A stretch of 42,602 nucleotides of DNA from an uncultured Lachnospiraceae bacterium (lineage in GTDB: Bacteria; Bacillota; Clostridia; Lachnospirales; Lachnospiraceae). The stretch is from positions 462 through 43,063 of the forward strand of contig CAJTXA010000028.1 of assembly GCA_910579865.1 (NCBI GenBank), written 5' to 3'. Both the position numbers and the translations under genes were made by a program. Of the stretch, positions 35,106 through 37,362 are shown piece after piece. The notes below the pieces were generated by a model. The model did not search any database, was not told where the DNA came from, and saw only the letters and a list, made by a program, of their open reading frames with translations. Within the stretch, counting starts at the first letter, position 1. Each line of letters begins with the position of its first letter.

Positions 35106-36668
35106 CTATTTTATTAAGTCCTTTATTGCCTGTTCAATTGCATCATACCGCTTTGACTGAAGCTGTTCTAATAATGCTGCCATAGGATCAGTTTTATTAC
35201 TTAATACCATTTTTACAATATTTGGGCTAAATCCGCTTACTAAAGCAACCCCCAAATCATTCTGTCTAATTGGAATTGTACCTGTCTGTGAACCAATATT
35301 CCAAAAGACTAGTCGTGGCAACTGATATCCTGCTTTTTGATAACGTTCTTCAAATATGTGAAACAATTTCTTTGATGGTTTTGTTGGATAATTTCCATCT
35401 GCATTACAGCATACACAAGCATCAAATTCCATATCTGATAAAATTAAAATATTTTGTGGCAATTCTTCCTGTTTCATCTGTTGTTTGATTGCGGTCATTA
35501 AAATCAGATCAAAAACTGCTTCAATATTTGTATTTGCTACTTCATTATGCCGACTTGCAATTATTAATTTTTCTTTTAGACTTACTGCTTTTTTGAAATC
35601 CACAATTTGAGGATGTTCACTAAAGGTAAGGTACGTATTTTGAAATTGTCCCTTACTTCTTTCTGCAAAATAAATAGCAAGTGAATTGGCTACATCTAAA
35701 CACCTTACCTGTGTTCCTCCAATAGTAGACAACATACTGCCTGAACCATCTGCCACACAGAGCGTATTTCCATCATTTGTCCCATAATCTGGCAATGCTT
35801 TCCAAAGTTCTTCCAATGTATTATCTAGTTCTTTTAATTGATAAGAATACAATTCCTTTTTATAATTATGTACAATATCATGTGGAAACAAAACTCCTGC
35901 ATGAATTTTGGTTTCTCCTTTTTTCAAACTTTCTAAATAACACATTCTACGTTCTTTATCATTTCTTAAAAATGCATTATTATAAAGTAAATTTGCTCTA
36001 GATGGAACCGCTGCATAATTAATTTGTGGCCATTCCCTTTTGCTCATAAAAACTTCTACAACCTTAAGATACTTTCGTAGCTTAGAAAGCATTTTTCTAT
36101 ATTGTCTTTCTGAAATATCCAATTTCATAATTATAATATGAGCCAAACGTTTGGTTTCTTTTGAAGAAGCATTTGCACTTGGAAGCCACTTTGCCAGCAA
36201 AGAAATTGCTTTTTCCTCACTCATATGCTGTCTATCTTCTGCTAACTGTCGTTTTATTATCTCAATAATATCATCACAAAGACAACTATCTAACAGACAA
36301 AGCAAATTATCCCAACGACTATAAAAAGGAATCCATTCTAATACAGCTTTTACAAATTCTGGATTATTTCTGGCAAGGCATTTCATTCCAATTCGAAATA
36401 AACGCCGTTCTCCTAATCCCTCTCGTACATCTCCTGCGAAAAATAACCACTTAACTGCAAGCAACTTATCTTCACAAAAAACTTCTGTAAATTTTTCTTC
36501 TATTTTCTGTTCACTTTGATTGCGCAGAGAGGATACTTGAAAATTTAAATCCAGTAGTTTTTTCCCTGTTGTCTGATATCCTACTGCACCATTTTCTGTA
36601 ATACTTATATTCTTATCTGTCTCTAATGTATTCTTTAAATGTTCCATAAATTCCATACTCTGCATCAA
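35106..36668 (-). CDS. Ro60/TROVE-like or DUF2828-like protein: N-terminal alpha-helical domain + C-terminal vWA domain with MIDAS motif
   Basis: 520 aa. The C-terminal CVADGSGSMLS is a DxSxS MIDAS motif of a vWA fold. The N-terminal TENGAVGYQTTGKKLLDLNF resembles the start of Ro60 TROVE and DUF2828 proteins (..DGY..T...RL.RFL.F). It is adjacent to the tRNA-like ncRNA array. The family assignment is by motif memory only. Confidence 0.5.
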   Translation of the reverse strand: MMQSMEFMEHLKNTLETDKNISITENGAVGYQTTGKKLLDLNFQVSSLRNQSEQKIEEKFTEVFCEDKLLAVKWLFFAGDVREGLGERRLFRIGMKCLARNNPEFVKAVLEWIPFYSRWDNLLCLLDSCLCDDIIEIIKRQLAEDRQHMSEEKAISLLAKWLPSANASSKETKRLAHIIIMKLDISERQYRKMLSKLRKYLKVVEVFMSKREWPQINYAAVPSRANLLYNNAFLRNDKERRMCYLESLKKGETKIHAGVLFPHDIVHNYKKELYSYQLKELDNTLEELWKALPDYGTNDGNTLCVADGSGSMLSTIGGTQVRCLDVANSLAIYFAERSKGQFQNTYLTFSEHPQIVDFKKAVSLKEKLIIASRHNEVANTNIEAVFDLILMTAIKQQMKQEELPQNILILSDMEFDACVCCNADGNYPTKPSKKLFHIFEERYQKAGYQLPRLVFWNIGSQTGTIPIRQNDLGVALVSGFSPNIVKMVLSNKTDPMAALLEQLQSKRYDAIEQAIKDLIK

Positions 36669-36729
36669 CCCTTTCTAAATCCTATATTTTTTACTTTCCT
36701 TTTTCTTTCACAAATCTTTTTAATAACAA

Positions 36730-36854
36730 TGAAGAGTGGGTGGATTCGAACCACCAAATCTTTACGAAGCCCCTATGTATGTAAATGCTGTTTGAGACTT
36801 TTACAAGTCTCTTTCATACTATCTGCTGCCTATCCCATTTTGGCTACACTCTTC
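36730..36854 (-). ncRNA. tRNA-like ncRNA D (divergent copy; 8-bp acceptor-like stem, D-arm, insert, canonical T-arm)
   Basis: On the minus strand, 5' GAAGAGTG pairs with 3' CACTCTTC. D-arm TAGCCAAAATGGGATAGGC (GG in the loop). T-arm GGTGG-TTCGAAT-CCACC. The ~70-nt internal insert contains the hairpin GAGACTTGTAAAAGTCTC and the motif AAACAGCAT. Confidence 0.45.
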
Positions 36855-36962
36855 TCTAAAAATAAGAAAAAGACTACAAAATTGTATCTTTCTAGTCTCA
36901 TTTTGTTACCCTCTAATCGTGAAAGTTATTTTACGCTGTTTGAGACTATTCTTATTTTTAAA

Positions 36963-37073
36963 CAGGGACGACAGGAATTGAACCTGTGACACTATGAGGT
37001 ATTAAAGATTTGCTGTTCGTGTTTTTCTAAACACATTTGTTTCATATGCTCTACCCATCTGAGCTACGTCCCT
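36963..37073 (-). ncRNA. tRNA-like ncRNA C (111 nt; Y-RNA/YrlA-like tRNA mimic candidate)
   Basis: Acceptor stem AGGGACG/CGTCCCT with discriminator G. The D-arm GCTCAGATGGGTAGAGC is canonical. T-arm ACAGG-TTCAATT-CCTGT. Between the D-arm and T-arm lie ~60 nt (normally ~23) containing the hairpin GTGTT-TAGAAAA-AACAC and the motif GAACAGCAAATC. Confidence 0.5.
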
Positions 37074-37108
37074 TTTTATTTTTAACTTCTATTATTTACT
37101 TACAAAAA

Positions 37109-37248
37109 TAGGGATGACAGGAATTGAACCTGTGATCGAATAAACATTAGGATTTGAACCTATTACTCAAAAGAGTCGCCAAAAATTTGCTGTCTGCGTT
37201 TTTCTAAACACATCTGTTTATTTGCTTTCCCCACTAAGCTACATCCCT
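37109..37248 (-). ncRNA. tRNA-like ncRNA B (140 nt; contains an extra internal T-arm-like hairpin)
   Basis: Acceptor stem AGGGATG/CATCCCT with discriminator A. D-arm GCTTAGTGGGGAAAGC. Hairpin GTGTT-TAGAAAA-AACGC followed by AGACAGCAAAT. An additional hairpin AGG-TTCAAAT-CCT resembles a T-arm. The terminal T-arm is ACAGG-TTCAATT-CCTGT. Confidence 0.5.
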
Positions 37249-37265
37249 TTCTATCCTATTTCAAA

Positions 37266-37362
37266 CGGGGACGGTAGGATTCGAACCCACGAATTTACAA
37301 AATATTGCTGTCTATGTCTTTCTAGACATAATTCTTTTGCTCTACCACTAAGCTACGTCCCC
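37266..37362 (-). ncRNA. tRNA-like ncRNA A (97 nt)
   Basis: Perfect 7-bp acceptor stem GGGGACG/CGTCCCC with discriminator G. D-arm GCTTAGTGGTAGAGC. Hairpin ATGTC-TAGAAAG-GACAT followed by AGACAGCAATATT. T-arm GTGGG-TTCGAAT-CCTAC. Its 5' end is 12 nt after the rhaM stop. Confidence 0.5.

Follow-up and report, generated by a model that had tools for sequence, protein, structure and literature searches.

A Ro60-like DUF2828 protein gene and its tRNA-shaped neighbour RNAs: a probable two-part ribonucleoprotein locus in bacteria and phages

What role could be played by a protein gene that follows, on the same strand, a row of tRNA-like sequences that do not read as tRNAs? The question is raised by positions 35,106 to 37,362 of a 42,602-nucleotide (nt) stretch of an uncultured Lachnospiraceae genome (GenBank assembly GCA_910579865.1, contig CAJTXA010000028.1), analysed here as a whole and referred to as the window. 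The locus comprises a gene for a DUF2828 protein with a von Willebrand factor A (vWA) domain and, upstream of it, an array of RNA elements. Precedents for such a pairing exist: Ro60 (Rsr) is accompanied by the adjacent, tRNA-mimicking RNA YrlA (PMC4201824), and a phage Ro60 binds RNAs (Yrl) encoded upstream of its gene (PMC12135203). The evidence assembled below indicates that the locus probably encodes the two halves of a Ro60/Y-RNA-like ribonucleoprotein (RNP), in which both the protein family and the RNA architecture are new, and that this particle probably acts on tRNAs. An initial annotation had proposed that the locus works like a Ro60–Y RNA pair, and this logic is upheld by a Ro60-type fold and by an RNA family that travels with the protein across phyla and phages. 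The whole feature lies on the minus strand, where the RNA elements (37362-36730) are followed by the protein gene. Its parts are as follows, R1 being the covariance model of the RNA family introduced further below.

35106..36668, minus strand: Ro60-like protein gene (DUF2828 plus DUF7788/vWA), an open reading frame (ORF) of 520 amino acids (aa) from a TTG at 36668
35733..35750, minus strand: MIDAS motif (for metal-ion-dependent adhesion site) DGSGSM of the vWA domain, residues 307-312, from the translation
37266..37362, minus strand: element 1 (E1), tRNA-shaped, 97 nt; Rfam tRNA 47.6 bits, 38-nt insert
37305..37329, minus strand: E1 module, from the sequence: hairpin ATGTCT-AGAA-AGACAT (37329-37314), AG, ACAGCAA (37311-37305)
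37109..37248, minus strand: element 2 (E2), tRNA-shaped, 140 nt; Rfam tRNA 50.5 bits, 74-nt insert; R1 63.2 bits
37187..37211, minus strand: E2 module, from the sequence: hairpin GTGTTT-AGAA-AAACGC (37211-37196), AG, ACAGCAA (37193-37187)
36963..37073, minus strand: element 3 (E3), tRNA-shaped, 111 nt; Rfam tRNA 51.0 bits, 44-nt insert; R1 86.8 bits
37010..37034, minus strand: E3 module, from the sequence: hairpin GTGTTT-AGAA-AAACAC (37034-37019), GA, ACAGCAA (37016-37010)
36893..36948, minus strand: element S, a class-2 (stem-loop) RNA; RNAfold pairs its strands, and the 108-nt E3-E4 spacer has z = -3.85
36730..36854, minus strand: element 4 (E4), tRNA-shaped, 125 nt; R1 80.0 bits, fold z = -3.2
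36786..36811, minus strand: E4 module, from the sequence: hairpin GAGACTT-GTAA-AAGTCTC (36811-36794), AA, ACAGCA (36791-36786)

The Ro60-like architecture first ascribed to the protein is supported by structure comparison. An AlphaFold2 model was built on 19 homologues (predicted local distance difference test, pLDDT, 72.7; predicted template-modelling score, pTM, 0.67). When it was compared with the Protein Data Bank (PDB) by Foldseek, all three matches at E<=1e-3 were Ro60 (3.3e-8, 5.9e-7 and 2.2e-5), with alignments spanning the full protein length and template-modelling (TM) scores of 0.35-0.42. The comparison also bears out the vWA fold of the C-terminal domain, and helical repeat plus vWA is the Ro60-type overall fold. 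The MIDAS motif DGSGSM was found as described, and five of its six residues (D307, G308, S309, S311 and M312) are invariant across 19 homologues. Judged by the predicted model, the protein and Ro60 are distantly related in structure: a helical part resembling TROVE is joined to a MIDAS-bearing vWA domain. As the TM-scores are modest, the fold is termed Ro60-like here, with no claim of a closed ring.

The Pfam scan assigned the protein to DUF7788 (PF25043, 4.6e-42) and DUF2828 (PF11443, 5.6e-34). vWA_Ro60 (PF25045) stayed below threshold (14.2 bits against a cut-off of 27.7 bits, E 0.042), and no other additional Pfam family appeared. Among the relationships initially suggested for the protein, those to DUF2828 and to the Ro60 fold thus held, and a TROVE match at the sequence level did not. 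A scan against NCBIfam gave no match and PADLOC a marginal one only, while in PHROGs it falls into phrog_850, whose label is "RNA-binding protein" (E 1.5e-128). Actinophage annotators have labelled homologues "Ro-like RNA binding protein", so this designation is already known. The family is very large, with at least 7949 DUF2828 homologues at E<=0.001. It occurs in 710 phage-collection records, including Felix O1-like, Listeria P100-like, Staphylococcus, Campylobacter and mycobacterial phages, and Pfam lists DUF2828 in eukaryotes too. A database protein that is 98% identical lies in the same gene neighbourhood and has 516 aa. Because of this length, the ATG at 36656 (MEFMEHL...) is probably the true start, which would give the window protein 516 aa as well; a Shine-Dalgarno-like AAAGGG is found 12 nt ahead of it.

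The RNA half of the locus proved equally regular. Four tandem tRNA-like elements of 97-140 nt had been placed upstream of the gene on its strand, and their coordinates were recovered, together with the 12-nt gap behind the rhaM stop: rhaM (Pfam 1.5e-24) ends at 37375 and E1 begins at 37362. The last RNA element stops 73 nt ahead of the protein start codon. All four elements keep the acceptor stem and, as first described, canonical D and T arms. In E1, the 7-base-pair (bp) acceptor stem, the D arm and the T arm (GGTTCGAATCC, 37287-37277) are combined with a module in place of the anticodon arm; this element scores 78.1 bits with R1, folds with z = -4.1 and has an orthologue at the same array position in loci L001 and L002. 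The anticodon position of E2 is taken by a long stem (AAATAAAC/GTTTATT) around three parts: the module, a small hairpin and, besides the real T arm of the element, another hairpin of T-arm type (GGTTCAAATCC, 37160-37150, minus strand). Sitting at the anticodon position, this extra hairpin (TAGGTTCAAATCCTAA) has the look of a piece of a second, nested tRNA; it is kept as CTAGGTTCGAATCCTAAC in the orthologue L001:2981-3137. E3 has an intact 5-bp anticodon-type stem (TATGA/TCATA) around a 44-nt module-bearing loop, with no 7-nt anticodon loop, and reconstruction of its anticodon arm failed the U33/R37 test. E1-E3 have in common an anticodon-type stem, of 5 perfect bp in E3, around a loop that the module makes up. 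E4 differs in a long type-II-like D arm (GCC-AAAATGGGATA-GGC) and an extra helix (GTATG/CATAC) around its module, again with no anticodon loop; its orthologues L001:3471-3594 and L002:1148-1271 show compensatory changes in the hairpin.

A fifth element, S, lies between E3 and E4. It consists of TAGTCTC (36948-36942), AA, ACAGCG (36939-36934), about 34 nt and GAGACTA (36899-36893), which makes a long-range stem whose 5' strand leads into the motif. Both strands of this stem are kept in the orthologous spacers of L001 and L002, and so are GAGACTAGAAAGA and the ACAGC motif. All five window elements share the arrangement helix-NN-ACAGCR. This fifth element, the common ACAGCAA signature, the anticodon loops of many relatives and the heavy phage and tRNA-array context described below go beyond the initial annotation. 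The array order is the same in L001 and L002, although their proteins are only ~70% identical to the window's. These two loci are the closest genomic relatives, and they carry extra class-2 modules (L001 at 3612 and 3925) that are lost or degraded in the window, whose second spacer module reads GAAAGATACAATTTTGTAGTCTT, with ACAGCAA gone. Such arrays therefore gain and lose units.

Could the window elements nevertheless be tRNAs? With the Rfam tRNA model (RF00005), E1-E3 lie above the gathering score of 29 (E 3e-7 to 3.5e-8), with their inserts at the anticodon position, whereas E4 gave no match even at E<=5; the tRNA model thus detects three of the elements and misses one. ARAGORN in standard mode called none of the four. 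A canonical anticodon stem-loop (5 bp, 7-nt loop, U33, R37) was obtained in none of them either, even on removal of any single insert. Because no canonical anticodon loop is present, the window elements are not decoding tRNAs, in agreement with the original view that they cannot fold as standard tRNAs. Two other assignments were rejected. The intron-mode ARAGORN calls "tRNA-Ile(AAT)" and "tRNA-Leu(CAG)" are forced fits with inconsistent intron positions and implausible anticodons such as AAT, and a group I intron within a tRNA gene is discounted by inserts of 38-74 nt, where such an intron has about 200 nt or more, and by Intron_gpI, which was unmatched in Rfam even at E<=5.

The elements belong instead to a large, structured and conserved RNA family for which Rfam has no model of its own: besides tRNA, no Rfam family matches them. 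The genomic comparison set comprised 80 genome loci encoding relatives of the protein, in which intron-mode ARAGORN found 111 insert-bearing tRNA-like sequences on the gene strand, directly upstream. From a structure-blind MAFFT alignment of 86 elements, RNAalifold derived a consensus of four helices (acceptor, D, new hairpin and T), with compensatory double changes at 20 of the 23 consensus pairs. When 110 distinct sequences were aligned on the model, pairing was seen in 98.6% of cells (73.7% when shuffled), and the covariation score reaches 0.705, against 0.211 for shuffled alignments and at most 0.133 for slid partners; the pairs of the module hairpin covary as well. The tRNA body is strongly constrained, with U8, G10, A14 and most of the T-loop (GGTTC.A..CC) invariant and the D-loop GG present in at least 90%. 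The module runs from an A-rich linker through a 5-7-bp hairpin, two variable nt and R-C-A-G-C-A-A to a U-rich tract. Its hairpin has a variable base, a conserved UUU/AAA top and a GNNA-type loop, and RCAGCAA is conserved to 84-96% per position. Pairing of the A-rich 5' linker with the U-rich tract 3' of ACAGCAA was examined as well; no register stood out, and the pairing frequencies are explained by composition. Up to five paralogue lineages with distinct acceptor stems are kept across genomes.

The covariance model of this tRNA-shaped family, R1, separates members (at least 53 bits) from true tRNAs (at most 50 bits), and all four tRNA-shaped window elements fall in the member range (63-87 bits). 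It recovered 117 members in the window and 83 loci, and 116 on re-search of 54 member-bearing sources; in genomes, every member is on the gene strand and, with few exceptions, upstream of the gene. A further 193 members were found in 80 viral loci from IMG/VR. For annotation, it matters that hundreds of such RNAs fall between genes or under small spurious ORFs, of which MsGreen gp55 may be one, and that Rfam-based pipelines will call them tRNAs while ARAGORN will miss them.

A second design carries the same signature without a tRNA body. In class-2 RNAs, a 5' stem strand is followed by NN, ACAGCAA, about 40-50 nt and the 3' stem strand. A downstream complement of at least 7 bp exists at 264 of 552 distinct ACAGCAA sites, compared with 59 in shuffles. 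This design adjoins the DUF2828 gene, on the gene strand, in six cultured phages:

Listeria phage LMTA-34 (L083), 2673-2900, gene strand: three tandem class-2 copies directly upstream of the gene
Staphylococcus phage (L085), 4038-4260, gene strand: three class-2 copies directly downstream of the gene
Bacillus phage Chewbecca (L084), 751, 1393 and 1967, gene strand: three class-2 copies
Citrobacter phage Michonne, Felix O1-like (L082), 4727-5500, gene strand: four class-2 copies between tRNAs
Campylobacter phage F358 (L086), 2300-2400, gene strand: two class-2 copies
Mycobacterium phage MsGreen (L081), 4440-4790, gene strand: three ACAGCAA modules directly downstream of the "Ro-like" gene

Class-2 and tRNA-shaped RNAs are the same local object, a duplex strand running 3' into single-stranded ACAGCAA, and the sole difference is which end of the duplex is closed. 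In the Bacillus, Staphylococcus and Campylobacter phages, as in a faecal phage contig that has no annotation, R1 yielded true tRNAs only. Their elements also escape a hairpin-then-motif regular expression; they carry the permuted class-2 design. MsGreen, where alone a YrlA-like permuted order is seen, has T arm, closed acceptor-like stem and D arm in a row, flanked by two modules; no Rfam match to YrlA was obtained in phage loci L081-L083. An annotated ORF of 30 aa, gp55, possibly a spurious one, overlaps this MsGreen region, and the class-2 copies of the Listeria, Staphylococcus, Bacillus, Citrobacter and Campylobacter phages sit in unannotated gaps. A "half-tRNA" variant was seen in IMG/VR contigs L191 (1040-1200) and L205 (2020-2170), where a CCA-ending true tRNA is followed by TTTTAGGNTACNT-ACAGCAA, a hairpin with an ATAAAC loop and a T arm. 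It has neither acceptor nor D arm and is conserved between these two unrelated phage contigs.

How tightly are the RNAs linked to the protein gene? At distances of up to 1.5 kb from DUF2828 genes, 159 non-redundant loci contain 570 copies of ACAGCAA in sense and 35 in antisense orientation, with ~27 expected per strand, which amounts to a sense:antisense enrichment of ~16-fold. At least one copy is present in 141 of the 159 loci, and most exceptions hold variants (GCAGCAA, ACTGCAA, ACCGCAA) or have truncated flanks. The cultured phages contribute 18 sense and no antisense copies, with the motif in six of seven. It also stands beside proteins only ~30-35% identical to the window's, namely those of MsGreen, LMTA-34, Chewbecca, Michonne, F358 and the Staphylococcus phage. 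An R1 element adjoins the gene on its strand in about 56 of the 80 genome loci and in nearly all of the 80 viral loci. In the reverse direction, a scan of IMG/VR with the RNA pattern alone (ACAGCAA N12-42 GGTTCGANTCC) returned 120 loci, 34 of which have, within the flanking sequence available, an adjacent same-strand DUF2828 homologue, many of divergent subfamilies. The protein-RNA pairing proposed here follows the same co-localisation logic that tied YrlA to Rsr.

In the 80 genome loci, the pair is self-contained: no neighbouring gene recurs with the module, neither one for RtcB or PNPase nor one for a nuclease. Their neighbours are antisense ORF artefacts and lineage-specific housekeeping genes only, such as those for ABC-F, a cytidylate-kinase-like protein, a sigma factor, an RluD-type pseudouridine synthase and LspA. 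In the window, the copy looks chromosomal: it has rhaM on one side and, on the other, an aldo/keto reductase gene, with hydrogenase genes beyond. The setting in phages recalls phage tRNA arrays that carry repair genes (RtcB, or T4-type polynucleotide kinase (PNK) and RNA ligase) against anticodon nucleases. The phage DUF2828 gene and its RNAs lie in or beside tRNA arrays, some near RtcB, PNK or RNA ligase, whereas the window copy has no adjacent tRNA gene and no repair enzyme nearby. Same-strand true tRNAs occur at 72 of the 80 viral loci, and 10 (Michonne) and 19 (Chewbecca) annotated tRNAs form arrays beside the gene. In Listeria phage LMTA-34, RtcB lies 1.3 kb from the gene, and RtcB and a phosphohydrolase are both within ~2 kb; an unannotated 60-bit Rfam tRNA was also noticed in its GenBank record (L083, 1341-1415). 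Mycobacteriophage LeBron encodes a Ro-like protein, an RNA ligase and a polynucleotide kinase (PMC13148394).

Comparison with Ro60 and YrlA reveals both likeness and difference. YrlA (RF02553) mimics tRNA in its D and T arms and in conserved nucleotides of tertiary contacts, as does the window family, and in both systems the RNA gene or genes lie beside the protein gene on the same strand. Ro60 combines a helical (HEAT-like) part with a vWA/MIDAS domain and is the best structural match of the DUF2828 model. Both systems also occur in bacteria and phages, with a link to RtcB-type RNA repair in some genomes. In contrast, the protein family is DUF2828/DUF7788 here and Pfam TROVE in Ro60, with no match at the sequence level. 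The topology differs too. The ends of YrlA form the Ro-binding stem at the anticodon position, and its acceptor-like stem is loop-closed (PMC4201824), giving the permuted order T arm, acceptor-like stem, D arm. In the window family, it is the acceptor stem that the ends form, and the D arm is followed by the module and then by the T arm. Here the conserved site is helix-NN-RCAGCAA, where YrlA has a GNCGAA/CGAA bulged helix, and up to five paralogous RNAs per locus together with a non-tRNA class are further features unlike YrlA. The initial annotation had cautioned that its RNA architecture departed from YrlA. This caveat proved justified, given the unpermuted topology, the different motif and Rfam scores of 26.7 and 23.7 bits against a threshold of 69 bits; identity with YrlA was rejected accordingly. 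The sub-threshold matches themselves (37020-37160 and 37201-37315, minus strand) reach from the T arm of one element into the D arm of the following one and are, for that reason, a tandem-tRNA artefact, a pattern of dimeric-tRNA false positives of which Chen et al. 2014 warned.

Fold similarity, RNA structure with covariation, the motif and strand-specific co-localisation in bacteria and phages are direct results of computation. From them, we infer binding of the RNAs by the protein, the ACAGCAA junction as the binding site and a tRNA-directed function. The DUF2828 protein would dock on the helix-NN-RCAGCA(A) junction common to all five RNAs. The tRNA-shaped body may provide tRNA-like folding, processing (RNase P/Z) and stability, and it could double as an effector or tether module, as supposed for the tRNA-like domain of YrlA. 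The clients of the particle would likely be tRNAs, because the phage gene sits in tRNA arrays and near RtcB, and LeBron encodes a ligase and a kinase. The phage setting suggests surveillance, protection or repair of tRNAs, possibly tied to the phage-host conflict over anticodon nucleases.

Several observations weigh against this RNP interpretation. TROVE (PF05731) gave no match to the protein in the Pfam scan at E<=1, and phmmer and a profile hidden Markov model of the protein found no Ro60 among PDB sequences at E<=10. Sequence methods thus give no link between the protein and TROVE, the vWA_Ro60 match at E 0.042 being the nearest approach. The initial annotation expected a TROVE-like ring in a structure prediction; a Ro60-like fold was recovered, but a closed Ro60-type ring is not demonstrated by a medium-confidence model with such low TM-scores. 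The canonical Ro60 site of Y RNAs (CGAA/bulged helix, paired ends) is absent. About 18 of the 80 genome loci have no recognisable RNA, and on viral contigs L170, L217, L235 and L246 family RNAs have several kb of flank free of the gene; adjacency is therefore strong and not absolute. Counts in a promoter and terminator scan around the window array did not exceed those of shuffles and are uninformative. Finally, about 40% of the family could form a perfect anticodon stem-loop without the insert.

This last point leads to the view that the elements are genuine tRNA genes with a new insert in the 5' strand of the anticodon stem, excised or tolerated, and that DUF2828 is a maturation or splicing chaperone, perhaps working with RtcB-type ligases such as the one near the gene in LMTA-34. 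When one contiguous insert is removed, a perfect 5-bp stem with a 7-nt loop, U33 and R37 arises in 44 of 116 genomic elements (0.88 in shuffles) and in 41 of 87 viral elements, and in 32 of the 44 the insert falls between nt 28 and 29; the tRNA-with-insert account therefore fits those members. As in ordinary tRNAs, the 7-bp acceptor stem, U8, A14, G18G19 and the T-loop GGTTCRANYCC are kept, and many relatives with an interrupted anticodon loop have a single insert at a fixed site, as intron-containing tRNAs do. The site, however, is in the stem and not at 37/38; known tRNA introns are bacterial group I introns of the anticodon loop and archaeal bulge-helix-bulge introns, the latter at non-canonical sites. 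The splicing endonuclease, moreover, is not known from bacteria. Nor is there a canonical anticodon loop in the window's four elements or in ~60% of the family. The inserts (38-74 nt in E1-E3) are too short for group I introns, yet they carry their own hairpin and motif, conserved in sequence and structure far beyond what an "exon" would need, and class-2 RNAs bear the motif without any tRNA body. CCA is encoded in only 7 of 116 elements, and most lack it even in places where every neighbouring true tRNA has it. Some arrays already hold a canonical tRNA with the anticodon of the element (Asn-GTT in L145). Within one orthologous lineage, moreover, positions 34 and 35 vary while the body stays nearly identical: the loop is CU-NNU-AA, with CTT, GTT, TCT, TAT and CCT as variants (L054:3130, L018:3671, L014:3304, L012:3828 and L016:3471 in the A3/A4 alignments). 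Genuine insert-bearing tRNAs are thus a rather improbable explanation overall, unlikely for the window and open for the relatives that keep an anticodon loop.

The variation at positions 34 and 35, with U36-A37-A38 fixed between close relatives, could reflect diversifying selection or relaxed constraint. It is also in line with decoys or sensors of tRNA shape, held by the Ro60-like protein against anticodon nucleases or tRNA toxins, as phage counter-defence, cell defence or antitoxin. This idea is a functional variant of the RNP proposal. It agrees with the abundance of the module inside tRNA arrays of large phage contigs, with the predominance of the tRNA-Asn-type loop CU-GUU-AA among viral elements (19 of 41) and with a candidate defence gene (HipA-like/PDC-M03A) ~1.1 kb from the window gene. 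In LeBron, which also encodes the repair enzymes mentioned above, the Ro-like gp53 is moderately toxic on overexpression (PMC13148394). All of this is context. The window elements have no anticodon loop to cleave, class-2 RNAs have no tRNA features, and no nuclease or toxin gene is consistently linked in the 80 genome loci, which leaves the decoy function unlikely. A simpler role, in which the ACAGCAA junctions are cis-acting operators in mRNA leaders or trailers through which the protein autoregulates, with the tRNA shapes as processing or stability signals, would suit elements that mostly lie directly upstream on the same strand (73 nt before the start codon in the window) with no independent promoter or terminator evident there. 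It is hard to reconcile with elements downstream of the gene (L043, L064, L073, L140, MsGreen and the Staphylococcus phage) or scattered among tRNAs (Michonne), with the maintained paralogue lineages and with full tRNA tertiary signatures, needless for an operator; we regard it as very unlikely. That the elements are functionless, whether decaying pseudo-tRNAs or chance resemblances, might be suspected from their rejection by ARAGORN, but this is refuted by comparative data: strong covariation in all four helices, more than 300 members in two collections, an insert motif conserved from Lachnospiraceae to actinophages and the array order shared with L001 and L002.

The reading of the locus as a Ro60/Y-RNA-like RNP would give DUF2828 a likely RNA partner, with the signature helix plus ACAGCAA, and a likely field of action, tRNAs. 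It would also add to the Ro60/Y-RNA design, in which a protein of ring shape has a tRNA mimic as its genomic neighbour, a second and structurally distinct version, unpermuted and in many cases equipped with an anticodon loop. The RNA family, the ACAGCAA junction, the unpermuted tRNA with its anticodon-stem insert, the stem-loop class and the breadth of the association, which recurs in hundreds of gut bacteria and phages of many lineages, appear to be new. No account of DUF2828 function or of these RNAs, in arrays or elsewhere, was found in the searchable literature, although an earlier mention elsewhere is possible. More tentatively, and with a modest chance of being right, the system could constitute an RNP class, widespread in gut bacteria and many phage lineages, in which a Ro60-like ring holds interchangeable tRNA-shaped RNAs; where phage and host contend over the cleavage and repair of tRNAs, these would serve as baits, guides or shields. 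If so, with many of these RNAs bearing fast-varying anticodon loops, it would represent a new functional arm of phage tRNA arrays. The questions thereby opened concern the role of tRNA-mimicking partner RNAs, the extra genes of phage tRNA arrays and the use of decoy or insert-bearing tRNAs against anticodon nucleases.

Beyond the array and upstream of rhaM, three ORFs on the minus strand of the window deserve mention. The nearest, at 37796-38911, encodes 371 aa with no Pfam match and matches the PADLOC candidate defence family PDC-M03A (E 7.8e-10) referred to above; its HipA-like motif (...NTDRNRDNFG...) was recognised by eye. The second is an acidic ORF of 79 aa (38923-39162), and the third, of 851 aa (39799-42354), has no family match and carries an Hsp70/actin-like GIDFGTKST motif. 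Together, the three may form a toxin or defence island.

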